The translations under genes were made by a program, and so were the position numbers. A stretch of DNA of 64,000 bases from Acidimicrobiia bacterium. GTDB taxonomy: Bacteria; Actinomycetota; Acidimicrobiia; Spongiisociales; ZC4RG35. Numbering within the stretch: the first letter of the stretch is position 1; each line of letters opens with the position of its first letter. The notes below the pieces were generated by a model that was not told where the DNA came from, ran no database searches, and saw only the letters and a list, made by a program, of their open reading frames with translations. Location: the NCBI GenBank assembly GCA_041744375.1, contig JBGTLA010000053.1, forward strand, positions 44,536-108,535, given 5' to 3'. Shown piece after piece: positions 13,724 to 43,470 of the stretch.

Positions 13724-14608
13724 TTAGCCCTGGGCCCGCCAGCCGCCAACGATGTCGGCGGTCTGGGCGATGGTGTCGAGCGTGATCGGGTCGAGAACGA
13801 GTTGCACGGTGGCGACGCCGGCCTCGTCGAGGGCAGTCAGGGCCTGTTCCTTGGCTCTCCGATCGGAGAGGCGATGTGCGGCGTCACGCCGGACGGGGTT
13901 CAATTCGAAGTGCCACAGCATCGCCAGCGTCTTGGCGACGGTGTCCGGGTCGCGTCGAACCGTTCGGCAGGCTTCGTCGATCTGGCTCAGCAGAGCGGGG
14001 ACCTTCGCCGGGTCGTTGTCGTAGGAGGCGTACCAGGCGTTCCACTGCTGCACGTGCGGAAGCGTCGCCGCCAGCATCCTTCGGCCGGTGGAGCCAATGA
14101 GAAGAGGTGGGCCCCCGGCCGTCGGGCCGAGGGGATCGATCACGCAGTTCGGGAAGTGGTAGTAGGTGCCGTGGAAGTCGATGGCGCCTTCTCGTAACAG
14201 AGTGCGGATGACGGTGAACGCCTCCTCGAAGCGGCTGGCCCGGTCTTCGAACACGAACCCGAAGGCATCGAACTCGGTCCGATTCCACCCCGACCCCAAG
14301 CCGAGGATAAACCGTCCGCCGGAGATCTCGTCGAGGGCCGCCGCCTGGCGCGCCAGCACGGCCGGGTTGTGAAAGGGAGTCGCGGCCACCAAGGGACCGA
14401 TGGCGACCGTGTCGGTGGCTTCGGCCAGGGCCGCCATGGTCGTGAACGTGTCCCACGGACCCCGCCAACCCTCCGGGGTTTGGTAGAGCAGGTGATCGCC
14501 CACCCAGATCGAGTCGAGCCCACTCTCTTCGATGAGGCGCGCCATTGCCTTGATCTCGATCCACCGAACGCGCCGCTCGATCTCGGGAAGCTGAACCCCG
14601 ACATTCAT
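13724..14608 (-). CDS. LLM-class (luciferase-like) flavin/F420-dependent oxidoreductase
   Basis: TIM-barrel luciferase-like monooxygenase signature ('SIWVGDHL', 'GRFILGLGSGW'). Start taken at the internal Met 'MNVGVQLPE'. Confidence 0.75.
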   Translation of the reverse strand: MNVGVQLPEIERRVRWIEIKAMARLIEESGLDSIWVGDHLLYQTPEGWRGPWDTFTTMAALAEATDTVAIGPLVAATPFHNPAVLARQAAALDEISGGRFILGLGSGWNRTEFDAFGFVFEDRASRFEEAFTVIRTLLREGAIDFHGTYYHFPNCVIDPLGPTAGGPPLLIGSTGRRMLAATLPHVQQWNAWYASYDNDPAKVPALLSQIDEACRTVRRDPDTVAKTLAMLWHFELNPVRRDAAHRLSDRRAKEQALTALDEAGVATVQLVLDPITLDTIAQTADIVGGWRAQG

Positions 14609-14821
14609 TCCTGCTCCTAGGCGGCTTGGTGGTCGACTCTCTGTCCATCTAAGCAAGCGCGGAGATGACGTACGATCTCCTCTGAGAAGTCGTGTGCCTC
14701 CGCCTGCAGCTTCTCGGCTCCCTAACGTCGGCGGTGTCGTTTCGTCGGTGAGGGACGATCGGCGTCTCGATACGGTCTTTGGACCCGTGACATTGCGCGG
14801 TCCGGGTCGAACAATCGACTC

Positions 14822-15298
14822 ATGATCGATTCACACGACTACCGATTGACATTGAGCGGCACCGGAGTCAAGACCGGCCGGTTCTCGGCCGGCGACGGGC
14901 GGCTGCCTCCTCTCGAGGTGGCGTCCCCTCCCGAGTTCGGTGGGCCGCCTACGACGTGGAGTCCGGAGGACCTCTTCGTGGCCGCCATCTCGGCCTGTCT
15001 CATGACGACGTTTCGAGCCATGGCGGATCTGTCCCAGCTCGAGGTGCTTGCCTACGCCGACGAGGCGTCGGGCCGACTGGCGCGCGACGAGGCGGGGGGT
15101 TACCGCATGGAGTCGGTGACGCTCCGCCCGCGTGTGCTCATAGGCGACCGCGACAAGGTCGCCAAGGCACATCGCCTACTCGAAAAGGCGGAGAAGGCCT
15201 GTTTGATCAGTCGCTCGGTGAGTGCAGAAGTGCGGATGTCCGCCTCGGTAGACGTCCCCGAGGTTGCGCACACCGTACCCAGCCTCAGTGGGCCCTGA
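14822..15298 (+). CDS. OsmC/Ohr family peroxiredoxin-like protein
   Basis: 158 aa. The OsmC family fold shows the conserved Cys pair context 'AAISACLMTT' and 'EKACLISRS'. Confidence 0.75.
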   Translation: MIDSHDYRLTLSGTGVKTGRFSAGDGRLPPLEVASPPEFGGPPTTWSPEDLFVAAISACLMTTFRAMADLSQLEVLAYADEASGRLARDEAGGYRMESVTLRPRVLIGDRDKVAKAHRLLEKAEKACLISRSVSAEVRMSASVDVPEVAHTVPSLSGP

Positions 15299-15373: not shown

Positions 15374-15754
15374 ATGCAACCCATCGAGACAACGGTGGCG
15401 CTTTCCCTCGAACGGGCGGAAGAAGCCGTGCGAACCACCTTGGCGGCCAACGGGTTTGGGATCCTCACCGAGATCGACGTGGCGGCCACGCTGGCGTCCA
15501 AACTCGGAATCGAGCGTCCACCTTTGAAGATCCTCGGCGCCTGCAACCCGGTCTTCGCTCATAGGGCTCTCGAACTGGATCCCGACGCAGCGATGGTCCT
15601 TCCCTGCAATGTCGTGCTGGAGCCTGCGGCGGGAGGCGGCACCAGGATCAGAGCCGTGAATCCGCACGACTTGATGCCCGATCCGGCTTTCGCCGAACTA
15701 GCCGCGGCTGCGGCCCAGGACCTGACCGCTGCCCTCGATGCTGTGGGCGAGTGA
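15374..15754 (+). CDS. DUF302 domain protein
   Basis: 126 aa with 'FGILTEIDVAATL...KILGACNP' matching DUF302. AAGGAG RBS upstream. Confidence 0.65.
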   Translation: MQPIETTVALSLERAEEAVRTTLAANGFGILTEIDVAATLASKLGIERPPLKILGACNPVFAHRALELDPDAAMVLPCNVVLEPAAGGGTRIRAVNPHDLMPDPAFAELAAAAAQDLTAALDAVGE

Positions 15755-15788: not shown

Positions 15789-16067
15789 CTACCGTCCGAG
15801 ACGTCGCCGCCACCGTTCCCACCACGAGGGGGACTGCGGTTGTGTTGCTCTCCACTCGTCCCAGGTGGGAAGGTCACCGGCGGCGCGGGCCTGGGCGACA
15901 CATTCCGTGTGGGCGTGCCGGCGGCGTGCACCGGCTCCTTCGGGGGTGACGAGCATGTGCTCGGAGAGCGCCGGGATGCGATTGTCACAGAAGGGGCAGC
16001 GGTACACCGAAGCCGAGCGGTTCTGGGCCCGACGGAAAGCCCACCAGCGAACGTCGTCGTTGCTCAT
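15789..16067 (-). CDS. Small Cys/His-rich hypothetical protein (putative zinc-binding)
   Basis: 92-aa ORF 'MSNDDVRWWAFRR...YRCPFCDNRIP...HMLV...HAHTECV', with GGGAGG 9 nt upstream of the ATG. Function unknown. Confidence 0.4.
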   Translation of the reverse strand: MSNDDVRWWAFRRAQNRSASVYRCPFCDNRIPALSEHMLVTPEGAGARRRHAHTECVAQARAAGDLPTWDEWRATQPQSPSWWERWRRRLGR

Positions 16068-16125: not shown

Positions 16126-17340
16126 TCACGTCTCGTCACGGGTGGCTTCGAGGAACCAGGTGGCGAGCGCCCCTTTGCCCTTCGCTTCGATCGTTCCCCG
16201 GGGCACGCACACGAAGTCCTCGGCGATGAGCCGATAGGTGCTCTCGGAGATCTGGATGCGACCCGGTTCACCGTGCGATTCCATCCGACTGGCGGTGTTC
16301 ACCGTGTCGCCCCACACGTCGTATTGGAACTTGCGGGTGCCGATCACTCCGGCCACAGCCGGGCCGGAATGGATCCCGAGTCGGAACTGCAGCCCGCTGT
16401 GGCGGCTGTACTCCAGCATCTCCAATGACATGGCCGCCAGGGCGTGGGCGTGGTCCGGTCGTGCCACGGGCACACCCGTCGCGGCCATGTAGGCGTCACC
16501 CATGGTGCGGATCTTCTCGCAGCCATGCTTGTCGGCGAGAGCGTCGAAATGTGAGAACACTTCGTTGAGGCGTCCCACCATTGTCTCGGGGTCGGTGTCG
16601 GCAGACATGACGGTGAACCCAACGATGTCGGCGAAAAGGACGCTGATCGACTCGAACCGTTTGGCCGTCGTCTGGCCGTGCTCTTTCAACTCGGACGCCA
16701 CTTCAGCCGGAAGGACATTGAGCAGAAGACGCTCAGCCCGCTCCCGCTCGAACATGAGACGTTTGAGGAAGTACACCAGAACCGAGGTGACCATGGCCAG
16801 ATTGCCCACCAGCACGGCCGTGAACATGGCGGTCGACAGAGTGGAGGAGGGGGGCGGTCGTGTGGCGGCAACGCGTGCCTCGACGAGGCCGAGCGCGATG
16901 GCGGCTGCGACGTAGAAAGCCCCCACCGCCGTTGCCTGTCGACGACCCAGCATGAGAACGAGAGCGAATGTCAAGCTGATACCCCACATCAGGTAGGCGC
17001 CGGAATGGGCGTATCCCCCCAAGAGGAGGTGGACCGCCACCTGGTTGGCGACGCTGGCTCCTGCCGCGAACCAGGCCGGGCCACTCACGTTGCCCGTGGC
17101 GGCGTGCCAGCCCCAACTCGTGAGGTACGCCAAGCTCAAGCCGAGCGTGACCCACCCCGCCGGGGCTTCCCCGAAACCGAAAAGGACGATCCCGATCAGG
17201 GCCGTGAGCAGGGCAGCGCCACCCAGGGCACCGGTGACCAGCCAACCCACCGTCCTCGGATTCTCGAGAGTCGCCAGCGCCTCGGCCGGGGTGGTGCGGG
17301 CGGCGAGATTGTCCCAGAACTGGCCACCAGACTCTTTCAC
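16126..17340 (-). CDS. Membrane-anchored class III adenylate/guanylate cyclase
   Basis: About 200 aa of N-terminal transmembrane helices followed by a CYCc domain ('VLFADIVGFT', 'KIRTMGDAYMAA', 'VWGDTVNTASRMES'). Confidence 0.85.
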   Translation of the reverse strand: MKESGGQFWDNLAARTTPAEALATLENPRTVGWLVTGALGGAALLTALIGIVLFGFGEAPAGWVTLGLSLAYLTSWGWHAATGNVSGPAWFAAGASVANQVAVHLLLGGYAHSGAYLMWGISLTFALVLMLGRRQATAVGAFYVAAAIALGLVEARVAATRPPPSSTLSTAMFTAVLVGNLAMVTSVLVYFLKRLMFERERAERLLLNVLPAEVASELKEHGQTTAKRFESISVLFADIVGFTVMSADTDPETMVGRLNEVFSHFDALADKHGCEKIRTMGDAYMAATGVPVARPDHAHALAAMSLEMLEYSRHSGLQFRLGIHSGPAVAGVIGTRKFQYDVWGDTVNTASRMESHGEPGRIQISESTYRLIAEDFVCVPRGTIEAKGKGALATWFLEATRDET

Positions 17341-17368
17341 AGTGTCTCCTCCGCCGTGCCTACTCGGA

Positions 17369-17809
17369 TCATGGCACCAGCGAAACCGCCACCGCGACGA
17401 CCGCCACGGAAACCACGGCTCCGGTCACTCCGATCGTGCGGGCGGCGCCAGCGGACGACCGCACGGCCGTCATGCCGTGAATCGCCGCCAACCCGAATGA
17501 AGAGAGTGCCAGAGCGATCTTCACAGAGAGCGCCGTCCCATACCCCGGCGAAGCAAGGCCGGCCAAAGTCACGCCACGGTGATAGGCGAGGGCCAGGCCG
17601 CTCCCGAGCAGGATGGGGATGAGGCCAAAAGTGGCCAGCCGACCAAAGCGCGACCCCAGCGCAGATACGAGGTGGCGACGCGCCGCATCGTCCATGAGGC
17701 GGGCCGAAACTGGTCGCACCACCAGACTCAACGTCAACTGGCCACCTACCCACAGGATCGCCGCACCCACGTGGAAGAACCGAACGACAGTCCACCCGTC
17801 CAGCCTCAT
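17369..17809 (-). CDS. Hypothetical integral membrane protein
   Basis: 146 aa with 4 predicted transmembrane helices. Start at the internal Met with GAGGAGG 7 nt upstream. It lies immediately upstream of the cyclase gene on the same strand. Confidence 0.45.
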   Translation of the reverse strand: MRLDGWTVVRFFHVGAAILWVGGQLTLSLVVRPVSARLMDDAARRHLVSALGSRFGRLATFGLIPILLGSGLALAYHRGVTLAGLASPGYGTALSVKIALALSSFGLAAIHGMTAVRSSAGAARTIGVTGAVVSVAVVAVAVSLVP

Positions 17810-18037
17810 CCTTGTTCCTCCTCGGTAAGAAGTTGAGAATCCATCCTGGCAGGCGGCATGAGACATGAAGACGGCGGTCAGGACCCACAATCGGCACTCG
17901 GCCCCGGCCGTCGGCATCAGCCTGCACGGAAAGGGGAAGCCGGCCCCGCCTTCGGATGGAGCCGAGCGTAATTCCGGTGTGCGAGAGAGCGGCGCGACCG
18001 GTTAGGTTCGGGGCGTGCATTTCTTCGAGGAGGTAGG

Positions 18038-20449
18038 TTGAACTCGCAATATCGGGTGGTCGTCGTCGGTGGGGGTGTGGTCGGAGCCAGCGTCTTGTAT
18101 CACCTGGCGAAGCTCGGCTGGACGGACGTGGCGATCGTGGAACGCAGCGTTCTCACGGCCGGGTCGAGTTGGCACGCAGCCGGCGGGGTCCATGCTCTCA
18201 ACGCCGATCCGAACATCGCCGCCCTCCAGGCCTACACCATCGACCTTCTCGCCGAGATCGAAGATGAGTCCGGTGTCGACATCGGGCTGCACATGACGGG
18301 CGGGATCTCCGTCGCTTCTGCCCCCGAGCGGTGGGAGTGGCTGCAGGACGCCTACCGGGTGTACCAGACGATGGGTATCGAGGATGTGAGGCTCATGGAG
18401 CCCGACGAGATTCGAGAGCTGTGCCCGATCATCAACATCGACGGTGTCTTCGGTGGGCTGTGGGCCGACCGCGAGGGATACATCGATCCCTCCGCAGTGG
18501 TACACGCCTACGCCAAGGCGGCGCGTCAGCTCGGCGCCACCGTCATCGAGCACAACCGTGTCGTCGATCTGAACCTGCGAGCCGACGGGCACTGGGACGT
18601 GGTCACCGAGCAAGGCACCATCGAGGCGGAGCATGTCGTCAACGCCGCCGGGCTGTGGGCTAAGCAGGTGGGGAGGATGGTGGGTGTCGAGCTTCCGGTG
18701 TCACCCTTGGCGCATCACTTCCTCATCACCGAGGCGATTCCCGAACTCGAACAGCGGGACTCTGAGATACCGATGATGATCGACCTCGAGGGTTTTACCT
18801 ACATGCGCCAGGAGCTGGGCGGCTTGCTGGTGGGGATCTATGAGATCAACCACCGGCACTGGAACATGGACGGTGCTCCTTGGAACTACGGGATCGAGTT
18901 GATACCTCCCGATGTGGACCGATTGTCCGACGAGCTGGCCGCCGCCATGTTCCGCTACCCGGTCCTCGAGGACACGGCCATCAACCGGTGGGTCAACGGC
19001 GCCTTCACGTTCTCTCCCGACGGAAACCCCCTCATCGGTCCCGTGCCCGGCGTGCCCAACTACTGGTCGGCGTGCGCGGTCATGGCCGGTTTCCTCCAGG
19101 GCGGGGGGGTGGGCAAGTCGCTGGCCGAGTGGATGATCGGAGGGGAGCCGGAAGAGGACATCTTCGGCATGGACGTCGCCAGGTTCGGGTCGTTCGCCGA
19201 GAACCGCGAGTACATCCGGCAGATGACGGGCCAGTTCTACTCGCGCCGTTTCGTGATGACCTACCCCAACGAGCAGTTGTGGGCAGGGCGACCGCTGCGG
19301 ATGGCCCCCGCCTATGACGCCATGACCGAGGCCGGGGCACAGTGGGGATGCTCCTACGGCCTCGAGGTACCGATCTACTTTGCCGAGCAAGGATTCGAGG
19401 AGACGCCCACGTTGCGGCGCTCCAACGCTTTCGACATCGTGGGCGAAGAGTGCCGTCGGGTACGGTCGGGTGTGGGGATCCTCGACATCGCCGGCTTTTC
19501 CCGGTACGAAGTCATCGGGCCCCACGCGGAAGAATGGCTCAACCATCTGGTGGCGAGTCGTCTCCCGGCGCCGGGCCGAATCAAGCTCGCTCCCATGCTC
19601 GGCCACGACGGGCGTCTCAAAGGCGATCTGACTCTCTTGAACTGGGGAGACGGGGTCTATTGGATCATGGGCTCCTACTACCTGCGGGCCTGGCACATGC
19701 GCTGGTTCAACGAACATATGACCGAGGGGGTGACGGTGCGCGACATCTCGGATGCCGTCGTAGGGTTCTCGCTTTCGGGGCCGAAATCGCGCCAGCTGTT
19801 GGAGCGGCTGACTCCCGACGACGTGTCGGCGGAGGCGATTCCCTTCATGAGTTGCAGCCGGCTGGATGTGGGGTTGCTCCGGGCCGGGGTGGGGCGGATT
19901 TCGGTGACCGGTGAGTTGGGTTATGAGATCCATTGTTCGGCGTCCGAGCACATCGCCCTACGGCGGATGCTCGTTGAGGCCGGCGCAGACCTGGGTGCGG
20001 TCGAGTATGGGTACAACGCGCTGTTGTCATTGAGGACGGAGAAGAGTTTCGGGGTCTGGTCGGCGGAGTTCCGACAGGAGTACACCCCCCAGATGACCGG
20101 AATGGATCGCTGGATCGACTGGTCGAAAGACTTCATCGGAGCCGAGCCGGCCCGCAAGGAGCACGAAGCCGACAGCGCTCCCCACAAGTTGGTGACGCTC
20201 GAGATCGATGCCATCGACGCCGATGCCTCGGGATACGAGCCGGTGTGGAGCGGCGCCACCCGGGTAGGGTTCATCACCTCGGGTGACTACGGCCACACCG
20301 TTGGGAAGAGCCTGGCAATAGCGTTGTTGGATCGGGGTTTCACCGACGAGGGAACCGAGCTGACCACCCATGTCGTGGGTGTGGAGCGCCCCGCCCGGGT
20401 CGTTGCCCCCTCCCCCTACGACCCGACCGGATCAGCGATGCGGCTGTGA
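18038..20449 (+). CDS. Dimethylglycine/sarcosine dehydrogenase family protein (FAD oxidoreductase plus GcvT-like aminomethyltransferase domain)
   Basis: 803 aa. N-terminal DAO FAD-binding region 'VVVVGGGVVGASVLYHL', C-terminal GcvT-like folate-binding domain. TTG start with GAGGAGG upstream. Confidence 0.85.
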   Translation: MNSQYRVVVVGGGVVGASVLYHLAKLGWTDVAIVERSVLTAGSSWHAAGGVHALNADPNIAALQAYTIDLLAEIEDESGVDIGLHMTGGISVASAPERWEWLQDAYRVYQTMGIEDVRLMEPDEIRELCPIINIDGVFGGLWADREGYIDPSAVVHAYAKAARQLGATVIEHNRVVDLNLRADGHWDVVTEQGTIEAEHVVNAAGLWAKQVGRMVGVELPVSPLAHHFLITEAIPELEQRDSEIPMMIDLEGFTYMRQELGGLLVGIYEINHRHWNMDGAPWNYGIELIPPDVDRLSDELAAAMFRYPVLEDTAINRWVNGAFTFSPDGNPLIGPVPGVPNYWSACAVMAGFLQGGGVGKSLAEWMIGGEPEEDIFGMDVARFGSFAENREYIRQMTGQFYSRRFVMTYPNEQLWAGRPLRMAPAYDAMTEAGAQWGCSYGLEVPIYFAEQGFEETPTLRRSNAFDIVGEECRRVRSGVGILDIAGFSRYEVIGPHAEEWLNHLVASRLPAPGRIKLAPMLGHDGRLKGDLTLLNWGDGVYWIMGSYYLRAWHMRWFNEHMTEGVTVRDISDAVVGFSLSGPKSRQLLERLTPDDVSAEAIPFMSCSRLDVGLLRAGVGRISVTGELGYEIHCSASEHIALRRMLVEAGADLGAVEYGYNALLSLRTEKSFGVWSAEFRQEYTPQMTGMDRWIDWSKDFIGAEPARKEHEADSAPHKLVTLEIDAIDADASGYEPVWSGATRVGFITSGDYGHTVGKSLAIALLDRGFTDEGTELTTHVVGVERPARVVAPSPYDPTGSAMRL

Positions 20450-20531
20450 CCGACCCCTTCCCAGTGCCACCCAGGCACTTGACAGCCCCCAGCGGAGGGA
20501 GAAGACATTCGCCCGTTCCCAACGGCATACG

Positions 20532-22010
20532 TCACCAGCGGAACAAGGCCTGGGCCACCGCTTTCCAATAACGCAGACCGCGCCGGCGGGGATACCGTGC
20601 TCCGAGCAGCGCCGACGTCGAGATGGGCAGCCGGGTGGCGGTGATCCCTTGGGCGTAACAGAAAGAGCGAATTCCCTCTGGGCCGAAGGCCACCCCGAGA
20701 CCGGAGTCCCCGATGCCGCCGAAGGGCAGGGAGGGCATGATGAAGTTGACATCGAGATCGTTGATGGCGACTGTGCCCGAGCGGATGCGGGAGGCGATGC
20801 GGGCGGCGCGACTGCGGTCGCGCCCCCACACGGAGGCGTGGAGTCCGTAGCGGTTGTCGTTGGCCATCTCGACGGCGGCTTGTTCGTCGGCCACGCGCAT
20901 GACCGAGATGATCGGGCCGAATGTTTCCTCCCGCATGATCGCCATCGTGTGGTCGACCTCGGTGAGCAGGGTGGGTTCGTAGTAGAAGCCGGAGACGTTC
21001 TCGACCCGTCGGCCGCCCCGCACCAGTCGAGCTCCCTTGGCGAGGGCGTCGGCGATGTGAGCTTCGATCAGCTCGAGCTGAGCCTGGTCGATGACGGGGC
21101 CGATCTCGTGACGGTCGTCGGTGCCGGCGGCCACATCCTCCAGCGCCCTGTCCAACTCGGCGAGGAAGGGTGCGTAGATGGCGTCGACTGCATAGACCCG
21201 TTCGACGGAAACGCAGGTTTGCCCGGCGTTGAGCATGCCGCTCCAAACCACCGCCTGGGCGGTGCGCCTGAGGTGGGCGTCGTCGAGGACGATGATGGGG
21301 TCCTTGCCGCCGAGCTCGAGAACGGCCGGTATCAGGCGTCGGCCGGCCGTCTCCCCCACTTTCTTGCCTACCGCGGTCGAGCCGGTGAAGGCGACCGCAT
21401 CGACTTGATTGACGAGGGCTGCTCCTACATTTCCGGCTCCGTGGACGACCTGGACCAGATCCGGCGGCAGGCCGGCGTCACCGGCGATGTGCCCCAAGAG
21501 CTCTCCGGTGAGGGGGGTCTTCTCGGAGGGTTTGAGCACTACCGAGCACCCGGCGGCGAGGGCTGTGAAGGCGGGAATCATCGAGAGAAAGAACGGGTAG
21601 TTGGAGGGTGAGATCACGCCCACCACCCCCCTGGGGTGGTATTCGGTCCATCCCCGTGTGGAGAGGTAGGGCCAGGAACCGGCGCGACGTGGCTTGAGGT
21701 AGCGGTGGGCATGGCGAAGGTAGTGGTCCATAACGGTCAGGGAGGTGACGACATCGAAGGCGTAGGCATCGCCGATCGGTTTACCCGTCTCCGAGGCCAC
21801 CGTCCGGGCCACCTCGTGGCCGCGAGCGAGGACCGTGCGCTTGAAAGCCCGCAGCACGATCCGGCGGTCGTCATGTTCGAGGGAGCTCCACTCTGCGAAC
21901 ACCTTGCGTGAGCGCTCAACCACCGTACCTATCGATTCGGGTGAGGTGACGGCGACGTCACCCACCGGCTCCAGCGTGCAGGGGTCGTAGGAGATGATCC
22001 GTTCTTGCAT
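20532..22010 (-). CDS. Aldehyde dehydrogenase family protein
   Basis: 492 aa with ALDH motifs 'ELGGKDP' and 'GQTCVSVERVY' (catalytic Cys). Confidence 0.85.
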   Translation of the reverse strand: MQERIISYDPCTLEPVGDVAVTSPESIGTVVERSRKVFAEWSSLEHDDRRIVLRAFKRTVLARGHEVARTVASETGKPIGDAYAFDVVTSLTVMDHYLRHAHRYLKPRRAGSWPYLSTRGWTEYHPRGVVGVISPSNYPFFLSMIPAFTALAAGCSVVLKPSEKTPLTGELLGHIAGDAGLPPDLVQVVHGAGNVGAALVNQVDAVAFTGSTAVGKKVGETAGRRLIPAVLELGGKDPIIVLDDAHLRRTAQAVVWSGMLNAGQTCVSVERVYAVDAIYAPFLAELDRALEDVAAGTDDRHEIGPVIDQAQLELIEAHIADALAKGARLVRGGRRVENVSGFYYEPTLLTEVDHTMAIMREETFGPIISVMRVADEQAAVEMANDNRYGLHASVWGRDRSRAARIASRIRSGTVAINDLDVNFIMPSLPFGGIGDSGLGVAFGPEGIRSFCYAQGITATRLPISTSALLGARYPRRRGLRYWKAVAQALFRW

Positions 22011-22059
22011 CAGGGGCGAATCGTACGCTCACTCCGGCGGTGTGGCGACAATCGTCTGT

Positions 22060-22584
22060 CTAGTGCGATCGAATGGTGTCGGCGAGCCGTCGTGCCAGGT
22101 TTCGCAACATCCCCAGCGCGATAGTCGGCTCTCTCTCCAGTAGTTCGTCGAGATCCAGACGGCTGATGGCCAGGGCTCTCACATCCGTCAACGCCGATAC
22201 CCGGGCAGTCCGGGGTGTGTCTGCCAGGACCGACAGTTCCCCGACGAACCCTCCCGGCCCCACGGTGATCGGGGCGTTGTCGCCCATGTCGACTTGGACC
22301 GAACCGTCTTCGATCACGAACAGGCCGTTGCCCGCCTGACCCCGCTCCATCAGCACGTGACCTTTCGAGGCCTGGAACTCGTTGGCGATGGCTGCCAGGT
22401 GCTCCAGGCCGCTCTGATCGAGTGACGAGAAGATGGGCACCTGGTGCAGGCGTTGGGTATCTGGTGTTGTCACACGCTCAGGGTAGCGATGGAGGCGTGG
22501 GGCATCCGCCGACCAGCGTCGATGTCCGGGACAGTCGTGAGCAACTGTTTCCAAGGCGTCGACGACAGTCCTGCGCCCGCGCAC
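22060..22584 (-). CDS. Standalone cyclic-nucleotide-binding (cNMP) domain protein
   Basis: CAP-family cNMP-binding beta-roll ('GHVLMERGQAGNGLFVIEDGSVQV', 'FVGELSVLADTPRTARVSALTDV') with no HTH domain. The exact start is uncertain. Confidence 0.65.
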   Translation of the reverse strand: MRGRRTVVDALETVAHDCPGHRRWSADAPRLHRYPERVTTPDTQRLHQVPIFSSLDQSGLEHLAAIANEFQASKGHVLMERGQAGNGLFVIEDGSVQVDMGDNAPITVGPGGFVGELSVLADTPRTARVSALTDVRALAISRLDLDELLEREPTIALGMLRNLARRLADTIRSH

Positions 22585-22623
22585 CGGCGACCAAGCTCCG
22601 CTCTTACCTGACCATTCGCCAGT

Positions 22624-23118
22624 TCATGTCGCGGTGGGATCGGCCCGCTGCTGGAACCTTCTCAGCTGGTCGGCCGCACTCTGGCGGATTCGGTTCTGCA
22701 TCCACGGTGTCCGGCCCAAGAGCACACCCGGCACTCCGGTGGCCTGGCGGGCCCAGGCGCCCAGGTCGAAGTGGTCGCGATGGGCCACAATCTGTCCGCT
22801 TGCGAACTCGAACTCGGCTGCGATGAGGTTGCGCACGGACCGTCGGGTCGGAGGAAAAGCGTAAGAGGCCTGCCAGCGGGCCGTGCCCTCTCGGTCGTCG
22901 GCGGTCACGTCTGAGAACTCCACCGTGAGGTCGGCCCCAGCAGCGCAGAACATCCGCCACATGTCACCGATATCGGATCCGGTCAGGTCGAAGATCGGAT
23001 CGTGAAACGTTGCCTCGGGGTGGTACAGGAGCGCCATGGCTTCGGCATTGCCGGCCCCGAGCGCCTGGTAGAGCAGGGTGATGGTGGCGGCGTTGGCATG
23101 CACGGTGCTGGTCCCCAA
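22624..23118 (-). CDS. NTF2-like/SnoaL-like family protein
   Basis: 164-aa small alpha+beta protein with a ketosteroid-isomerase-like pattern. Moderate call. Confidence 0.5.
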   Translation of the reverse strand: MGTSTVHANAATITLLYQALGAGNAEAMALLYHPEATFHDPIFDLTGSDIGDMWRMFCAAGADLTVEFSDVTADDREGTARWQASYAFPPTRRSVRNLIAAEFEFASGQIVAHRDHFDLGAWARQATGVPGVLLGRTPWMQNRIRQSAADQLRRFQQRADPTAT

Positions 23119-23124
23119 CTTCTC

Positions 23125-26100
23125 TCAACCGGTGGCGGCTTCGGCCGGAGCGGCTGTGGGTAGGCCGTCGGCGAACACCTCGAGCAGGTTGACCCGACCA
23201 TGACCGACGAAGATGCGGTGGGCGGATTCCGCCGCCTCGGCTCCGAGCGGGTCCTCGGGTCCGAGGAGTCGGGCGACGGTGGCGTTGATCACCCCCACCA
23301 TGCTCTCATGGCGAATCTTGTGGGTTTCATCGAGGAGGTGGCGGGCGAGGTTGGTGGCGTCGTCGACGTCGCCACCACCTGCTGTCGCCGCAGCCGCGAA
23401 TGTCTGCAGGGCGGAGATGAGACGGCCTCGCTCACGAATCATCGAGATTCTCTCGGCGGCGGCGGCGACCTGGTCGGGGTCGTCGAGCCAGATGGCGGCG
23501 ATGAGAGCCCATTCGAGCTCGCTGGGATATCCGTACACGTGCTCCACGGCCATCGCCTGGTCGTAACCCTCGGCGAAGTCCCCCGCCATGACGCTCACTT
23601 CGGCGTTGAGCCACCCGGCGATGGCCTTGATCTGCGGCTCTTGTGTCTCGCCCAGGACTTCGAGGTTGGCTCTGACCTTTTCGAGGCCGGCGGCCGCATC
23701 TCCGTTGGTCAGTTCGACGAAGGCCCACAGGTACTCGAATTGCCGTCGGGTGGTCTCCGGCATGACGGCGGGGTCCAGCTGAGCTTCGATGGCACGCACC
23801 TCGCTCAAGCGGCCGTTCTCCTGGAGGACCGCCGCCCGGTCGAAGGCGTAGCGGTAGATCCACGACGGATCCCCCAGCGCCAGCGCCTTCTCCCAGGCAG
23901 CCCTGCCGTTCTCATCGGTAGCTTTGTGGTCTTCGAGCCCGAGGACCACGCCGATGTTGTTGTGGGCTCGCAGAGCGGCCAGGGTCAGGTCGTGTGCCTC
24001 GGCCAGAGCGAGCGCGCCCCGGATGACGGCCAGGCTCTCGTGTCGCCGTCCTACCTCGATGAGCGACGTCCCCTTGGTGATGAGGAGGTCGACGAGCACG
24101 GGGAGATCCTCCGATCGCTCGGCGGCGGGGAGGGCCGCCTCGGCCACCTCAATCGAGTCGATGGGTTGGTTGGCCATCATGTGAGCCCGGGACAAGGCCG
24201 CCGCCAGTGCCAGCTCGGGCGAGGTGGCGGGCGGATCGTGGTCGGCGAAGACGGGCTTCAACTCGTCGATGGCGTCGAATGGGCGGTTGCTGTCGATGAG
24301 GCCCGTCCCGACCAACGTCATCGCCCGCAGTCGACCGTCTTCGTCGGGAATATCGGCGAAGTTCGACGCCGCCGACCGGGAAGCGGCGAGCGCCTGCTCA
24401 CCGTCGGCCAGGCCCCCGGCGGCTCCCGACCGCAGCAACTGCAGCTCGCCCTTGACTCGTTCATCGACGGCCATCGCCCTGGCGCGGTCGCTCAGTGCCA
24501 GGACCTGGCGGTGGGAGTGGAGGTCCGCGGCCCGGCGAGCGCTGCGCATCAGTGCTTCCAGGCCGCGGTTGGCCAGCTCCGCCGCGTCAGGTGCCTCAGG
24601 ATCGGCCCGGTGGGCGTCGATGAGGTGAGAGGCGACGACCCCGGCCACCTCGACGTCCTCGATCTGCTCGAAATAGTCAGCGACGGCGAGGTGGCGCTTC
24701 TTGCGTTCCCCCAAGGTGAGGCGGCCGTACGCCACCTCGCGAATAAGGCCCTGGATGAATTGGTACTGGCCACGTTCCGGTGAACGCGGGTCGTCTTCGA
24801 GCCGCAGGATCTCGGTGTCGACGAGGCGGGCCAGGAGTGGTTCGATCTCCTCTCGTCCCGTGCCGGCCACGACGCCGAGACCTTCGATGGTGAAGGACTG
24901 GCCCAAGACGGCGGCGTTCTTGAGCAGCGCCCGCAACTCCGGCTCGAGACGATCGATACGCGCACCGATGACGGCCTGGAGGGAGTCGGGAACCGTGATC
25001 CTCGCGATGTCGCCCTCGACGCGGTAGGTGCCGTCTCCGGCCGCCACGACGGTGCCGTCGTTGACCAGGGTTCTGATCATCTCGACCGCGTACAACGGAA
25101 CACCGGCGGCGCGTTCGACGATGGCGCTGAGGATGTGCCTGTCGAGGCCGGGAACGGTTCCTCCGACCAAGTCGCGCATGGAGCCGTCGGCGATGGGTCC
25201 GAGGTGGATCGAAGTTAGGTTGCGGCGTCCCCCTCCCCACCCTTCGGCACGGTCCAACAGGTCGGGGCGAGCCAGTGAGACGACCAGGATGGGATGGTGG
25301 GGTGAGCGGTCGATCAGCTCTTCGATGAATTCGAGAAGGCCGGCGTCGGCCCAATGGAGGTCCTCGAACACCAGCACCGTCGTGCCTCGCTCGGAGATGC
25401 GCTGGAAGAAGGTGCGGATGGCGGCGTACAGCTCGGTGCGGTCGCCGGCTGGCATCTCTTCCAGGCCGAGGAGCCCCGCCAGACGCGGTTCGATCCAACG
25501 CTGGTCTTCGGAGTCGGGGAGATACTCGGCTACGGCGGTCCGCAGGCGCATGCGGGATTTCTGGGGATCTTCGAGCTCGCCCAAACCCGTGCGACGCCGA
25601 ATCATTTCTCCCAGCGACCAGAACGTCAGTCCGTCGCCATAGGCCGGGGAGCGGCCCTGGTGCCAATAGATGTCGTCGACGAGCCCATCGACATACTTCT
25701 GGAACTCCCAGGCGAGCCTGCTCTTGCCGATCCCGGGCTCCCCGACGATCGACAACATACGGGCCCGCCGTTCGGATCCGGTGACGTGGAGAAGGTCTTT
25801 CAAGAGCCTCAGCTCGTGGTCACGGCCGACAAAGGGAGGCTCGAGGCCATCGCTACGGCCGCGGCCACCTCGGGCGGTAGCCACCCGGACGGCCCTCCAC
25901 ACTCGAATCGGCGCCTCTTTCCCCTTCAGCTCTCTCAGTCCTATCTCCTCGTAGGTGATCGACCCGTCGGTGAGTTCTTTGGTCGAGTCGCCAACGGCGA
26001 CCGTGCCGGGGGTGGCGATGGATTGGAGCCGGGCGGCCGTGTTGACCACGTCGCCCAGGACCAGGCCCGTTTCGTTCCCACCCGGTCCGACGGCGGTTTC

Positions 26101-26664
26101 GCCCGTCAGCACTCCCACCCGGAGACTCAAGTCGGCCACCCCGATCTCCTCTCCGAGGGAGCCGATTGCATCCACCAGTTCGAGGGCCGCCCGCACGGCG
26201 CGTTCGGCGTCGTCCGGTTCGGCCACTGTGGCCCCCCAGAAGACGGTGATGGCGTCACCAGTGAATTTGTCTATCACACCGCCGAACCGCTCGACGATCG
26301 CCCGGGACCTGTCGAAGTATGCGGTGAGCATGGCCCGTACCCGCTCCGGATCCCGGGTTTCGGAAAAGGCGGTAAACCCGACCAAGTCACAGAAGAGCGA
26401 GGTGACCAGTCGCCGTTCGGCCAGCGCGGGTGTCGGAGCCGTGGCGGCGGGAGCGTCCGCCGGCGGTGAGTGCTGCAGGGCCGAGCCGCACTCGGGACAG
26501 AACCTGTGGCCCGGTTGAGCATGGTGACCACACTCAGCGCAGCTGATGCTCAGCCTGTTTCCGCACTCAGCGCAGAACTTGTGACTGGCGTCGTTGTCGA
26601 ACTCGCAGGATGGGCAATACAAGGCGTCCTCCCTGCCGGAGGGTACCGGCGGGGGGCGCACCAC
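23125..26664 (-). CDS. Multidomain signalling protein: double zinc-ribbon, class III adenylate cyclase, AAA/STAND ATPase and TPR repeats
   Basis: N-terminal 'CPSCEFDN...CAECGNRL...CAECGHHA...CPECGSAL', then a CYCc domain ('LFCDLVGFTAFSE', 'KFTGDAITVFW', 'GDVVNTAARLQS'), a P-loop 'GEPGIGKSRLA' with Walker B 'VLVFEDLHWAD', and a long TPR-like C-terminus. Start reassigned to GTG 26664 (GGAG 7 nt upstream) because the ATGs at 26862 and 26823 overlap the RRM gene and its terminator hairpin. Confidence 0.8.
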   Translation of the reverse strand: MVRPPPVPSGREDALYCPSCEFDNDASHKFCAECGNRLSISCAECGHHAQPGHRFCPECGSALQHSPPADAPAATAPTPALAERRLVTSLFCDLVGFTAFSETRDPERVRAMLTAYFDRSRAIVERFGGVIDKFTGDAITVFWGATVAEPDDAERAVRAALELVDAIGSLGEEIGVADLSLRVGVLTGETAVGPGGNETGLVLGDVVNTAARLQSIATPGTVAVGDSTKELTDGSITYEEIGLRELKGKEAPIRVWRAVRVATARGGRGRSDGLEPPFVGRDHELRLLKDLLHVTGSERRARMLSIVGEPGIGKSRLAWEFQKYVDGLVDDIYWHQGRSPAYGDGLTFWSLGEMIRRRTGLGELEDPQKSRMRLRTAVAEYLPDSEDQRWIEPRLAGLLGLEEMPAGDRTELYAAIRTFFQRISERGTTVLVFEDLHWADAGLLEFIEELIDRSPHHPILVVSLARPDLLDRAEGWGGGRRNLTSIHLGPIADGSMRDLVGGTVPGLDRHILSAIVERAAGVPLYAVEMIRTLVNDGTVVAAGDGTYRVEGDIARITVPDSLQAVIGARIDRLEPELRALLKNAAVLGQSFTIEGLGVVAGTGREEIEPLLARLVDTEILRLEDDPRSPERGQYQFIQGLIREVAYGRLTLGERKKRHLAVADYFEQIEDVEVAGVVASHLIDAHRADPEAPDAAELANRGLEALMRSARRAADLHSHRQVLALSDRARAMAVDERVKGELQLLRSGAAGGLADGEQALAASRSAASNFADIPDEDGRLRAMTLVGTGLIDSNRPFDAIDELKPVFADHDPPATSPELALAAALSRAHMMANQPIDSIEVAEAALPAAERSEDLPVLVDLLITKGTSLIEVGRRHESLAVIRGALALAEAHDLTLAALRAHNNIGVVLGLEDHKATDENGRAAWEKALALGDPSWIYRYAFDRAAVLQENGRLSEVRAIEAQLDPAVMPETTRRQFEYLWAFVELTNGDAAAGLEKVRANLEVLGETQEPQIKAIAGWLNAEVSVMAGDFAEGYDQAMAVEHVYGYPSELEWALIAAIWLDDPDQVAAAAERISMIRERGRLISALQTFAAAATAGGGDVDDATNLARHLLDETHKIRHESMVGVINATVARLLGPEDPLGAEAAESAHRIFVGHGRVNLLEVFADGLPTAAPAEAATG

Positions 26665-26708
26665 GCTCGATCTCCGGTGAGGCGGAGTTTCGATGCCCCC
26701 ACGAAGAA

Positions 26709-26733
26709 GGTCCCCGTCGGTACGACGGGGACC
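26709..26733 (-). terminator. Intrinsic terminator-like hairpin downstream of the RRM gene
   Basis: Perfect palindrome GGTCCCCGTCG-GTAC-CGACGGGGACC (11-bp GC-rich stem), followed on the minus strand by UUCUUCG, 38 nt after the RRM stop codon. Confidence 0.55.
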
Positions 26734-26770
26734 TTCCGTGGCGGCTGTCGCTGCCCTTAAGCGTGCTTCC

Positions 26771-27025
26771 TCAGCGGGAGCGTTCCTTGGCGAGGTTGAC
26801 GGTGAGCTCGCGCCCGTCGACATCCTTGCCGTTGAGTGACGAAATGGCCTTCTGGGCCTCATCGGCGGAGCTCATCTCGACGAAGCCGAAACCGCGTGAG
26901 CGGCCCGAGTCCCGATCGGAGATGACCTGGGCGCTCGTGACCTGACCATGGGGCGCGAAGAGCGTCTCCAGGTCGTTCGAGCTGGTGTTGAACGTGAGGT
27001 TTCCCACGTAGAGTTTGTTGGACAT
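26771..27025 (-). CDS. RNA-binding protein with single RRM domain
   Basis: 84 aa with RNP-2 'LYVGNL' and RNP-1 'RGFGFVEM'. Confidence 0.9.
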   Translation of the reverse strand: MSNKLYVGNLTFNTSSNDLETLFAPHGQVTSAQVISDRDSGRSRGFGFVEMSSADEAQKAISSLNGKDVDGRELTVNLAKERSR

Positions 27026-27339
27026 TGCCTTGCTCCTTTGAGCTGAACCGTCGAATTGCTAGACGCCTCCGCAGGTCGAGCAGATGAATCCGGGTCTGTC
27101 TATGCGACGGGTGGAGACTTGCTTGCCCTGCGGCGACTTCACCCGACGGAACGAGACAAGCGAAGAAGAGGCGCAGCACGCACCAGGCGTGCGCTGTGAT
27201 CCCGAGTATAGCGGCTCGGTGGGGATGTGGCCCAAGTGTCACCCAATCTCACATCTGCGGTAGGGTCGGGCGTGAAACCCCGATTCTCCCGGATCGGATC
27301 GCTCTCAAGGACACGTGATGTCTCAACCAGGTTCTCCCC

Positions 27340-27636
27340 TTGTCTTCCTTTCCCGCTCGACCGCCGAAACTGGATCCTGACATGGCCAGGCGAGGACGCG
27401 AAGCGATGAACAAACGAGCCCGCGAAAGGGCGCGTCAAGAGAGACAAGAGGCCAAACAGGAAAAGCGAGAGTTGCGCGCCGATGAGCCGGCGCCCGAGGT
27501 CGTCGACGAAAACGCACTCATGGACGAGTTTGCCCGGCTCAGCGAGATGTACTCGGCCGAAAAGATCACCGAGGGAGAGTATGCCGAGGAGCGCCGCCGC
27601 ATCTTCGAAGAGCTCGGCATACCCAGCGACGGCTGA
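27340..27636 (+). CDS. Small charged protein with SHOCT-like C-terminal motif
   Basis: 98 aa with a Lys/Arg/Glu-rich N-terminus, then 'LSEMYSAEKITEGEYAEERRRIFEELG', which resembles SHOCT. Confidence 0.4.
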   Translation: MSSFPARPPKLDPDMARRGREAMNKRARERARQERQEAKQEKRELRADEPAPEVVDENALMDEFARLSEMYSAEKITEGEYAEERRRIFEELGIPSDG

Positions 27637-27990: not shown

Positions 27991-30900
27991 GTGGATCCTG
28001 TTGCATCGCCGAGTTCGACTGTCTTGCTCGAGGGGATCCTCGAACGTCTAGCCGACACCGAGGGGTCACTCGCCGCCTTTGCCAACGCCTATCTCCGACG
28101 GATCCCCTGGGACGTCGACATGTCGGAGGAAGCGATTTATCACGAGATAGTCGGCCTGTACGACTTCGTCGGGAAGCGGCCCCCCGGCACCATCTCGGTG
28201 CGTGCCTTCAACCCCACTCTTCCCACCCACGGCTACGCCTCGGACGGAACGGTGGTCGAGGTCAACATCGACGACAGCCCTTTCCTCGTCGACTCGGTGA
28301 CCAACGAGTTGCAGTCCCACGATCTGGCCGTGGTGAGGGTCTTGCATCCGGTGGTGGGGATGACCCGGGATAAGGCCGGACAGCTCTTGTCGGTGCAACC
28401 AGCGGCCCGCTCCCAGGTACGCGAGTCGGTTCAGCACTATGTCCTCGATCGTCATGTCGACTCCGACGACCTGGCGCCACTGGAAGAGAGGTTGGAGGAG
28501 GTGCTGGCGACCGTGCTCTCGGCGGTCGGGGACTTCGAGAGAATGCTCGGGACGGTCGAGAGCATGGTTGAGCTCGTGCGCGCCGGTGCCGGGCACTTTT
28601 CGCCGGTCGAAGTGGATGAAGCGGTCGCATTTCTCGAGTGGCTGCGCGACGACAATTTCGTCTTCCTCGGGTATCGCGAATACCGGATATCGGACACTCC
28701 AGAAGGCAGAGCACTGCATGGTGTGCCCGGGTCCGGCCTGGGAATCCTCTCGGACCCCGAACGGTCCCGGGTGTCGAAGCCGATACTTCTTTCCTCGCTC
28801 TCTCCCGATGTAGCTGCTCGTTACGAAAAGGGTGACCTCCTCGCCATCACGAAGACCAACCGACTGTCGGTTGTCCACCGTCGAGCCAGGATGGATTACG
28901 TCGGTGTCCGTATCGTGGGGCCGAAAGGAGAGACGGTGGGCGAAGCCCGCATGTTGGGCCTGTTCACCTCGAAGGCCTACATGGCGAGCGTTCTGCGCAT
29001 ACCGGTACTCCGTCACAAAGTGGCCCAGATCGCTGCCGCTGAGGATCTCATCGAAGGTTCACACGACCACAAGATGATCGTCGGGTTGGTGGAGGGCTTC
29101 CCCAAAGACGAGTTGTTCGGGTTGCCCACCGAGGACCTGCGCCGAGTCTTGATGGGGCTCCTCGCCTTACAGGAACGGGCACAGGTTCGACTCTTCGTCC
29201 GACGCGACCTCCTCGATCGGGGAGTGCGGGTGTTGGTGGCGATGCCCAGGGAGCGTTACTCGTCCGAGCTCGGCCGCCGCTTGCAGGAACTCTTCCTCGA
29301 GCGATTTGAGGGAACGACCGTCGATTACCACCTGACCTTGACTCGAAGCGACCTCGCCCGGCTCCATTTCACAGTCTGGGTGCCGCAGGGCCAGATACCC
29401 GATGTCCCCTTCGAAGTGCTCGAAGCCGAAGTGGCAGCCCTGGCCCGGTCGTGGTCCGAGCGGGTGGCCGAAGTGCTCACGGCTCGGCGCGGCGCGAGGC
29501 GTGCCCAAGAACTGGTGGAACGGTGGGCGGACCGAATGCCCGGCTACTACTCGGCGTCCACCCAGCTCACCGTTGCGGCCGGCGACATGGAGTGTCTCGA
29601 CGAGTTGACCCGGACCGGTCAAGAGTCCCTGGTGGGGCTCCAAAACGAAGCCGCAGGGCCCGATATCCTCACGCGGGTCGCACTGTATGAGATGCAAGGA
29701 AAACGGCCCTTGTCCGAGCTCATGCCGGCGCTGGAGGACATGGGGCTGAAAGTGGTAGAAGAGGTTCCGACACGCCTCTCGGGTGCTGAGAACATCTTCA
29801 TCCACGATTTTGGAGTCCTGGCGGCCGACGGCAAGCTCCTCGACCTCGAGACGTCGGCCGACAAGGTGGCAGCGTCCCTGGCGGCGGTGTGGGACGGCTC
29901 TGCCGAGAGCGATTCGCTCAACCGGTTGGTTCTGGTGGCCGGCCTCGACCACCATCAGGTCGCCATTCTTCGGGCCTACCAGACGTACTGGCGACGGGTG
30001 GCCTCGATCTTCACGGTGAGGTACGTCAACGACACGTTGGTGGCCCATCCCGAGGCGACGGCGGCCCTGGTGCGCCTCTTCGAACTCAAGTTCGATCCCG
30101 CCTCGGATGGGCACGGCTACCCCGAGGCATGCGACGAGATCATGGCCCGACTCGATGCTGTTCCGTCACTCGACGAGGATCGCATCCTGCGAGGGTTCTT
30201 CCGGCTGATCGAGGCCACCGTCCGCACCAATGCCTATCGGAAGGGTCGCCGGGCCCTTGCCCTCAAGGTGCGCTCGGCCGAAGTCCCGGACATGCCGGCG
30301 CCAAGGCCCTTGTTCGAGGTGTTCGTCGTGGGCGATGAGGTGGAAGGCATCCATCTCCGGGCCGGGCGTCGCGCCAGGGGGGGTATCCGCTGGTCGGAGA
30401 GGCGGGAGGACTACCGCACCGAGGTTCTGGGATTGATGAAGGCGCAGGTCACCAAGAACTCCATCATCGTGCCCACGGGGGCCAAGGGTGGATTCGTCTT
30501 GCGCAGGCCGCCTTCTGGGCGGGAAGCCATGAGAGAGGCGGTTCGCTCGGGCTACGAGACTTTCATTCGCGGATTGCTCGATATCACCGACAATCTCGTC
30601 GGTGGTGAGGTGGTTCATCCTGTCGATACGCGCGTTCACGACGACGCCGACCCATATTTGGTGGTGGCGGCCGACAAGGGAACGGCCAAGTTCTCCGACA
30701 CCGCCAACGACATCGCCCGAGAGTACGACTACTGGCTCGACGACGCCTTCGCCTCAGGTGGGGCATCTGGTTACGACCACAAACGTCTGGGGATCACGGC
30801 GCGGGGGGCCTGGAAGTCGCTGGAGCGCCATTTCCTCCAAGATGGCCTCGACCCTCACACCGAGACGTTCACGGTGGTGGGTATCGGCGACATGTCCGGG

Positions 30901-42816: not shown

Positions 42817-43041
42817 CTACCCGCCGCGCAGGAGATCACTGATCCTGGCTGCTTCCTCGTGTGACACCTTGGAGACGGCATACCCGGAGTGGACGAGGAC
42901 GTAGTCGCCGGGCTCGGCCTCGGGCACCATGACCAGATCGATGGTGGTCACCTTGTCGTCACCGAGCGCTACCCGAGCCGGGCGGGAGAACTCTGTGCCC
43001 GTTTCGACGGCGATGACTCGGGCGGCGACCGCCAAGCACAT
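42817..43041 (-). CDS. hypC: [NiFe]-hydrogenase assembly chaperone HypC/HupF
   Basis: 74 aa beginning 'MCLAV' with the conserved Cys2. 1-nt gap to the upstream protease gene. Confidence 0.8.
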   Translation of the reverse strand: MCLAVAARVIAVETGTEFSRPARVALGDDKVTTIDLVMVPEAEPGDYVLVHSGYAVSKVSHEEAARISDLLRGG

Positions 43042-43042
43042 G

Positions 43043-43468: not shown

Positions 43469-43470
43469 CG

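Follow-up and report, generated by a model that had tools for sequence, protein, structure and literature searches.

Gene content of the locus and architecture of the STAND cyclase

The 64,000-nucleotide (nt) stretch of an Acidimicrobiia bacterium analysed here (contig JBGTLA010000053.1; 'the window', in whose positions all coordinates are given) encodes, between 16126 and 26664, two class III nucleotide cyclases and a single-domain cyclic nucleotide monophosphate (cNMP)-binding protein. One cyclase is a membrane protein of 404 amino acids (aa), preceded by a gene for a protein with four transmembrane (TM) segments. The other, called the STAND cyclase below, joins a double zinc ribbon, a class III cyclase domain, a STAND NTPase and a tetratricopeptide repeat (TPR)-like solenoid in 1179 aa, and is followed on the same strand by genes for a SnoaL_2 (NTF2-like) protein, the cNMP protein and an aldehyde dehydrogenase (ALDH). 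The gene map, drawn from a codon-position G+C screen and Pfam (Table 1; window G+C 63-67%), agrees on all of these genes with an earlier sequence-only reading of the DNA. That reading had further proposed that the cNMP protein is the partner of the STAND cyclase and the 4-TM protein that of the membrane cyclase, that the STAND cyclase is atypical in lacking a C-terminal LuxR helix-turn-helix (HTH), and that a second cNMP gene, embedded in a hydrogenase operon, points to cyclic nucleotide control of redox metabolism. The whole window holds exactly two cyclase domains and exactly two cNMP domains. We estimate that two cyclases less than 10 kb apart are not by themselves beyond chance in the cyclase-rich Actinomycetota.

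The STAND cyclase, SnoaL_2, cNMP and ALDH genes, all on the minus strand, are separated by 6, about 150 and 49 nt, and the SnoaL_2 start falls 6-21 nt past the STAND cyclase stop. The STAND cyclase start is placed at a GTG at 26664, from which homologues of mostly ~1150-1170 aa align; this start is also favoured because the longest open reading frame (ORF; 23125-26862) would overlap the RRM_1 gene. The cNMP start was corrected from that of the longest ORF (22060-22584) to a GTG at 22473 by alignment to ~134-aa homologues. The four genes are probably at least partly co-transcribed. A promoter and terminator scan found no promoter-like sites, and terminator-like sites only as often as expected by chance, the minus strand of this cluster having none; the scan was uninformative on operon structure. 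An Rfam scan of the whole window gave no match.

A domain scan of the large protein bore out its architecture and detected no C-terminal HTH. Within the zinc ribbon, C17, C20, C31, C34, C42, C56 and C59 are invariant in 69 sequences, as are the metal-binding Asp93 and Asp137 of the cyclase domain together with Lys133, Asn208 and Arg212. The STAND module carries Walker A (GEPGIGKS at 308) and Walker B (VFEDLHWAD at 432) motifs. In the AlphaFold model (mean predicted local distance difference test score 87.5 overall and mostly >90 in the solenoid), the NTPase leads into a winged helix that is predicted to belong to the STAND core and not to be a C-terminal output HTH, and then into a solenoid of ~26 paired antiparallel helices at residues 651-1163, roughly 10-21 residues each (mostly 15-18). 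No Pfam TPR model matches the last 491 aa at E ≤ 1, and no other match there is credible at that threshold, the sole one being a sub-threshold chance match to ParD_antitoxin; some homologues carry precomputed TPR_12 matches. The TPR label given by the sequence-only reading is therefore valid, on the model, as the name of a fold and not as a sequence-family match. Identity to distant homologues is 61-64% across the cyclase and NTPase and falls to 23-36% in the solenoid, being lowest (23%) in its C-terminal half, a drop to be expected if a variable sensor is attached to a conserved switch and output.

The best fold match to the model in the PDB (Foldseek) is 6mfv, followed by Avs3 (8dgc) and then by the cyclases Cya2 and CyaB. 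With STAND-TPR proteins of the PH0952 (6mfv), MalT and Avs3 type, the STAND cyclase has in common the NTPase core, the winged helix and the C-terminal TPR-like solenoid, and presumably the logic of ligand-gated oligomerisation; it differs in that its effector is a nucleotide cyclase and not a DNA-binding or nuclease domain. Overall TM-scores to these structures are low because the domain arrangement differs. The closest solved catalytic domains are those of the soluble class III cyclases Cya2 (2w01) and CyaB (3r5g), at 27-34% identity and TM-scores of 0.80-0.86. Cya2, which makes cGMP, has Glu where the STAND cyclase has Lys133, and an E-to-K variant at this position (6fht) is an adenylate cyclase, which supports ATP as the substrate and is no proof of it. 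The second specificity position is Leu201, where Asp/Thr (ATP) or Cys/Gly (GTP) is canonical. The residues present make cyclic AMP (cAMP) the likely, not certain, product.

A search for homologues of the STAND cyclase returned at least 7967 candidate clusters at E ≤ 1e-10. Among the 120 matches listed, most are ~1150-1170 aa long with the same zinc-ribbon, cyclase and AAA_16 content, a few exceptions being truncated or without the zinc ribbon, and 0/120 carry GerE. Likewise, no GerE, LuxR or other HTH family was found on the STAND cyclase itself (Pfam, E ≤ 0.01), and its model ends in the solenoid. The missing LuxR HTH was thus seen correctly in the sequence-only reading and misjudged as a deviation: the HTH-less form is the rule for this very large family and no exception. 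The best homologues are metagenome proteins (66-67% identical), the named relatives come from Acidimicrobiia metagenome-assembled genomes (MAGs), and genome matches of the family as a whole fall in MAGs of Actinomycetota, Chloroflexota (Limnocylindria), Dormibacterota and Methylomirabilota. On the first two of these points, a mycobacterial origin of the DNA was rejected. Several paralogues per genome are common, sometimes in tandem; arrays of three or four occur in loci L049, L051 and L055. Other cyclases also lie within a few kb of STAND orthologues (L001 5437-8268, L002 3920-6760 and L177-L179). One kind is a cyclase-AAA_16-HTH_77-TPR_MalT protein of 943-946 aa, encoded next to a bacteriorhodopsin gene, and the other an Ad_Cy_reg-type (Rv1264-like) cyclase.

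The LuxR-bearing architecture is that of mycobacterial Rv0386, Rv1358 and Rv2488c, which are cyclase-ATPase-LuxR proteins (PMC3466318); Rv0386 is an active cyclase according to literature cited in that paper. These proteins resemble the STAND cyclase in having an N-terminal class III cyclase, an AAA_16 STAND-type NTPase and helical repeats. In contrast to them, the window protein has no C-terminal GerE/LuxR HTH and has an extra N-terminal double zinc ribbon. Its specificity pair, Lys/Leu, is also unlike that of Rv0386, which Castro et al. reportedly gave in 2005 as Gln/Asn. Membership in the Rv0386-type LuxR regulators was rejected, with no GerE or other HTH in the Pfam scan or the model. Rv0386-type proteins form a different, smaller branch, and the STAND cyclase family is separate and spans several phyla. 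In a literature search, all of the work found concerned the LuxR-bearing relatives of mycobacteria, and none of it the zinc-ribbon-cyclase-STAND-TPR family.

Conservation of the neighbourhood and its cNMP genes

The closest orthologues of the STAND cyclase (66-67% identity; loci L001-L004) have, 5 nt downstream, a gene for a 492-aa ALDH sharing 70-71% identity with that of the window. These four loci have no SnoaL or cNMP gene, and their surroundings are otherwise unlike the window. Orthologues at 61% and 50% identity stand alone, with convergent, unrelated genes downstream, and an ALDH lies directly downstream of a STAND cyclase in 0/80 genome loci. The SnoaL_2 gene is present in one syntenic contig, described below, and absent downstream of all other STAND cyclase relatives. 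SnoaL and cNMP genes as conserved operon partners of the STAND cyclase were therefore ruled out, the ALDH alone being retained and only in the 66-67% clade. In these comparisons, the only inherited link is that between cyclase and ALDH, and it is confined to this one clade. For the ALDH itself, the nearest NCBIfam model is the succinic semialdehyde dehydrogenase PRK09407, at 456 bits and below its cut-off of 521.

A sister contig in synteny with the window (L085; GCA_965612075.1) lacks the equivalent of 23181-26022, an in-frame deletion of ~2.84 kb (~947 codons). This deletion removes the STAND core, the solenoid and the final part of the cyclase fold, so that the zinc ribbon and the larger, remaining portion of the cyclase run on into the 17 C-terminal residues; at the junction, which has CTC microhomology, ...AARLQ runs directly into GVREGLP.... 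The SnoaL_2, cNMP and ALDH genes are kept, and a second assembly (L086) has the same truncated gene. Nucleotide identity between the window and L085 is 85-88% across 18000-27636, from the RRM gene to the DAO-GCV_T oxidase, and only 73-76% in the flanks, which hold the glutamate dehydrogenase on one side and the membrane cyclase to the luciferase on the other. This step could reflect a recombination tract or uneven selection, and in the former case the two cyclases have separate histories. The window also contains, at 56451-56561, an element of ~100 nt resembling a miniature inverted-repeat transposable element (MITE), with terminal inverted repeats GTGTTGAACAAT...ATTGTTATTCAACAC and a long hairpin (-40 kcal/mol); an 86% identical copy lies between the cNMP gene and the ALDH in L085 (8538-8648).

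In the 137-aa protein, cNMP_binding is the sole domain (Pfam cut-off 27.5 bits). Its phosphate-binding cassette is FVGELSVLADTPRTARV (GELS...PRTARV), and Glu116 and Arg125, numbered on the longest ORF, are invariant in 13 sequences; the protein is thus a predicted cNMP receptor with an intact binding cassette. It was ruled out as a CRP/FNR regulator, there being no C-terminal HTH in the 137 aa, and the name 'Crp/Fnr' in the sources applies at the level of the domain only. A search for literature on standalone bacterial cNMP-domain proteins found nothing useful. Relatives with 61-62% identity are encoded directly upstream of a glgC-like nucleotidyltransferase. In loci L087-L092, from several Acidimicrobiia assemblies, genes of this ~134-aa family lie 3-67 nt upstream of the glgC-like gene and beside an alpha-amylase-family gene, a context that suggests a link to glycogen metabolism. 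A relative with 53% identity (L182) follows hgmA and is convergent with a BTAD-AAA_16-TPR gene. None of the cNMP homologues of 53-67% identity lies beside a cyclase in the loci examined. Because this cNMP family has other homes elsewhere, the simplest explanation for the SnoaL_2 and cNMP genes is that they were inserted in the window's lineage.

At the level of the STAND cyclase family, cNMP genes of other kinds do occur beside the cyclase. A hidden Markov model built from diverse cNMP domains was run on all six-frame ORFs of the fetched loci. Of the 91 STAND-cyclase loci (1.2 Mb), 13 gave a match, with 14 cNMP-domain ORFs in all, compared with 1 such ORF in the membrane-cyclase loci (0.41 Mb). 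Immediate neighbours of the STAND cyclase account for 10-11 of the 14, where an even distribution over the 7-kb flanks would predict ~2. Several of the loci come from related MAGs and so are not independent; we would put the number of lineages at four or five. Five of these neighbours lie directly upstream on the same strand (L006, L076, L078, L080 and L081), with ends overlapping or nearly abutting, five are divergent and one is convergent. The genes encode either single-domain proteins (L006, L009 and L076) or major facilitator superfamily (MFS) transporters with a C-terminal cNMP domain, and are only 30-36% identical to the window's 137-aa protein. MFS-cNMP fusions of ~550-720 aa (longest ORFs) were seen beside STAND cyclases in L033, L051, L055, L066, L078, L080, L081 and L083. 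Judged from gene order, the pairing of cyclase and receptor genes is a recurrent theme of the STAND cyclase family, though the window's own pair is not inherited. What stands of the partnership proposed in the sequence-only reading is hence this adjacency at family level, and the claim of a specific pair loses its footing in the orthologues, the sister contig and the other contexts of the cNMP family.

The membrane cyclase, the hydrogenase cNMP gene and other neighbours

The membrane cyclase matches Guanylate_cyc at 202.2 bits (Pfam cut-off 21.9) over residues 226-398. Among solved structures it scores 236-242 bits with mammalian AC5/8/9 and 200 bits with Rv1625c (7yzi; residues 112-398). Its hydropathy profile has 4 clear and about 2 weaker segments at residues 30-190, before the catalytic domain. 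The metal Asp D238, the specificity residue D341 and the transition-state residues N348 and R352 are kept in 84/84 aligned relatives, and the second metal Asp of the window protein, D282, is present in a KIRTMGD motif. The position of the adenine-selecting Lys is occupied by Arg278, and relatives have R (63/84) or K (20/84) there. Rv1625c (Cya of Mycobacterium tuberculosis) and the mammalian membrane cyclases likewise have an N-terminal TM half, probably of six helices in the window protein, ahead of a single class IIIa catalytic domain, and the same metal Asp, specificity Asp, Asn and Arg. The window protein differs from them in having Arg278 for Lys, as do about three quarters of its relatives. 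It has no HAMP domain, and its TM half aligns with Rv1625c only from residue 112. It is predicted to be an ordinary class IIIa adenylate cyclase with six TM helices, of the Rv1625c/mammalian type and from a well-populated family, and like other members would act as a homodimer.

The 4-TM gene begins 28 nt upstream of the membrane cyclase, probably at an ATG at 17809 and not at the 17917 start of the longest ORF. Its product has four hydrophobic segments, with matches to CopD (23 bits) and DUF4149 (19 bits) that are both below cut-off. In tblastn searches, no homologue was found beside 80 membrane-cyclase relatives (metagenome loci, 38-70% identity) or in the syntenic contig L085, which has HisKA (histidine kinase) and HTH_20 genes instead. 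The gene named in the sequence-only reading therefore exists, and its role as a conserved cyclase partner is ruled out; it appears to be a lineage-specific neighbour. Just downstream of the membrane cyclase lies a small gene for a 92-aa protein with a CxxC...H...C pattern, whose counterpart in L085 is weakly flagged as PF27609 (Rv1322). This gene adjoins no other membrane-cyclase relative. In M. tuberculosis, Rv1322 lies near the Rv1318c-Rv1320c cyclases.

The second cNMP gene of the window is part of a complete group 3b-type [NiFe] hydrogenase operon (42817-47944, minus strand) comprising Fer4_22, the HoxI-like cNMP gene, NAD_binding_1/DHODB_Fe-S (2Fe-2S), the small and large subunits, HycI protease and HypC. 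The cassette of its 153-aa product is degenerate (GDLLG...WRARA, not GE...R[ST]A). Three relatives (40-57% identity) have the cNMP gene in the same position and keep the five-subunit order; two of these relatives have start/stop overlaps at both cNMP-gene junctions, and the third has one at the upstream junction. The group 3b cluster of Rhodococcus equi has the same order, 4Fe-4S/cNMP/FAD-NAD/small/large subunit (PMC13332983), and for HoxI of the Ralstonia eutropha soluble hydrogenase NADP(H) is the presumed ligand, as stated in PMC12319191 with reference to Burgdorf et al. 2005. Like HoxI and the R. equi gene, the window's hydrogenase gene encodes a small cNMP-domain protein within a cytosolic [NiFe] hydrogenase operon; the likeness applies only to this gene and not to the cNMP gene at 22060-22473. 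The gene is thus predicted to encode a known, HoxI-like type of subunit and is weak evidence for cyclic nucleotide control of redox metabolism. The pointer drawn from it in the sequence-only reading does not survive the degenerate cassette and the fixed place of such genes in group 3b-type operons.

Table 1. Features of the STAND cyclase and of the genes around it, in window coordinates.
Feature	Position	Strand	Basis or remark
STAND cyclase, 1179 aa	23125-26664	-	DZR, Guanylate_cyc, AAA_16
Double zinc ribbon	26482-26625	-	Residues 14-61; four CxxC pairs; DZR 39.8 bits
Class III cyclase domain	25882-26418	-	Residues 83-261; Guanylate_cyc 70.7 bits (cut-off 21.9)
STAND NTPase module	24895-25839	-	Residues 276-590; AAA_16 85.6 bits
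Winged helix of STAND core	24715-24894	-	Residues 591-650; secondary structure of AlphaFold model
TPR-like alpha-solenoid	23170-24714	-	Residues 651-1165; presumed sensor domain (AlphaFold model)
SnoaL_2 (NTF2-like), ~159-164 aa	22624-23118	-	SnoaL_2 62.6 bits
Single-domain cNMP-binding protein, 137 aa	22060-22473	-	cNMP_binding 60.6 bits
ALDH, 492 aa	20532-22010	-	Aldedh 429 bits
Membrane class IIIa cyclase, 404 aa	16126-17340	-	Guanylate_cyc 202 bits
4-TM protein, 146 aa	17369-17809	-	Hydropathy; sub-threshold CopD/DUF4149
cNMP-domain gene in hydrogenase operon, 153 aa	46374-46835	-	cNMP_binding 46.5 bits; outside 16126-26664
Luciferase-like monooxygenase	13724-14656	-	Pfam/codon-position G+C
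OsmC	14822-15298	+	Pfam/codon-position G+C
DUF302	15374-15754	+	Pfam/codon-position G+C
Small Rv1322-like protein	~15789-16064	-	
DAO-FAO_M-GCV_T oxidase (dimethylglycine-oxidase type)	18038-20449	+	Inside the range named by the sequence-only reading
RRM_1 RNA-binding protein	26771-27025	-	Pfam
Large NAD-glutamate dehydrogenase	27991-32754	+	

Interpretation of the locus

We consider it fairly probable that the region holds three independent, ordinary cAMP-signalling components, set side by side by recent rearrangement, and no inherited system. Catalysis by class III cyclases needs dimers. The STAND cyclase would stay inactive as a monomer; binding of a ligand or protein to its variable C-terminal solenoid would, by analogy with other STAND proteins, license nucleotide-dependent oligomerisation of the STAND core, and this would bring the N-terminal cyclase domains into dimers and switch cAMP synthesis on. 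Since the output is the second messenger itself, no HTH is needed. The 137-aa receptor, being devoid of an output domain, would act by ligand-dependent binding of another protein or by buffering cAMP. A local relay from cyclase to receptor is plausible but not required, and we speculate that the sensed signal might relate to the pathway of the putatively translationally coupled ALDH. Some observations weigh against this account. Only two lineages are compared, so loss of the SnoaL_2 and cNMP genes in the clade of the closest orthologues may fit equally well. The adjacency of cNMP genes across the family is non-random; linkage can be selected, and the arrangement in the window may be more than an accident. 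The noncanonical Leu201, in place of Asp/Thr, also leaves the product of the STAND cyclase uncertain.

The alternative closest to the sequence-only reading is that the STAND cyclase and the downstream cNMP protein form a dedicated sender-receiver pair which, together with the hydrogenase cNMP gene, places local redox and aldehyde metabolism under cyclic nucleotide control. The shared strand, short gaps and lack of a terminator-like site between the genes favour it, as do the intact cassette and the count of cNMP ORFs near STAND cyclases compared with membrane cyclases, most of them immediate neighbours. Yet the pair is missing from the 66-67% orthologues and from those at 50-61%, in the sister strain the cNMP gene outlasted the loss of the STAND part, and the closest cNMP homologues live in other contexts. 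A spacer of ~150 nt separates the SnoaL_2 and cNMP genes, a MITE-like insertion separates the cNMP gene from the ALDH in the sister strain, and the adjacent cNMP genes elsewhere are of other subfamilies, many of them fused to MFS transporters. With the hydrogenase gene better explained as a conserved HoxI-like subunit, we regard such a pair as unlikely. At the opposite extreme, the genes could be functionally unlinked, with both cyclases feeding and the receptor reading one global cAMP pool. Such pure juxtaposition agrees with the variable context of every component, gene order being kept only for the STAND-ALDH pair, and with a very large family that has several paralogues per genome, some in tandem. 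It sits poorly with the 5-6-nt spacing downstream of the STAND cyclase, in the window and in L001-L004, which suggests translational coupling and co-expression, and with the non-random adjacency to cNMP-domain genes, and we hold it to be decidedly unlikely.

A defence system of the Pycsar/Pucsar kind, in which an NLR-like STAND sensor would trigger a cyclase-made cyclic mononucleotide alarm read by a cNMP-domain effector, seems highly improbable. Pycsar/Pucsar systems likewise place a class III-type cyclase near a cNMP-domain gene (PMC11224242; bioRxiv 10.64898/2026.08.12.744502), PADLOC matches both window cyclases to PycC and the 137-aa receptor to the cNMP portion of PycTIR effectors, and the Avs3-like STAND fold, variable solenoid and tandem paralogue arrays in some genomes are what such a sensor might have. 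However, the PADLOC matches are at domain level only, do not exceed the generic Pfam matches in strength and are confined to shared domains, and the 4-TM and SnoaL_2 proteins have no PADLOC match. Pycsar receptors are defined by a TIR or TM effector fused to the cNMP-binding domain (PMC11224242), and the 137-aa protein has neither. The window cyclase is, unlike those of Pycsar/Pucsar, fused to a STAND sensor, and the cyclase and cNMP genes are not adjacent. The neighbours are metabolic and not defence genes, and orthologues of constant length are conserved across lineages. Membership in Pycsar was ruled out on the domain-level matches and the missing effector domain.

A bolder proposal, to which we give a slim chance, starts from the family and not from the window: zinc-ribbon-cyclase-STAND-TPR proteins would form private two-gene modules, in which the second gene encodes a cNMP receptor that is a standalone protein of ~140 aa in some cases and an MFS transporter ending in a cNMP domain in others. 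Each module would be an NLR-like, ligand-gated cAMP switch with a dedicated reader. The string of genes in the window would then be a newly assembled instance, possibly tuned to a metabolite of the co-inherited ALDH.

For the locus itself, the main value of the analysis lies in correct annotation: an absent HTH is normal for this kind of protein, and the arguments from the 4-TM partner and the hydrogenase cNMP gene fall away. Both cyclases and the receptor belong to known kinds, making this an ordinary signalling locus and no new system. The zinc-ribbon-cyclase-STAND-TPR family is abundant in soil Actinomycetota and Chloroflexota and appears unstudied, and its non-random adjacency to cNMP genes, including MFS-cNMP fusions, is a lead on how locally made cAMP may be read in bacteria with many cyclases.

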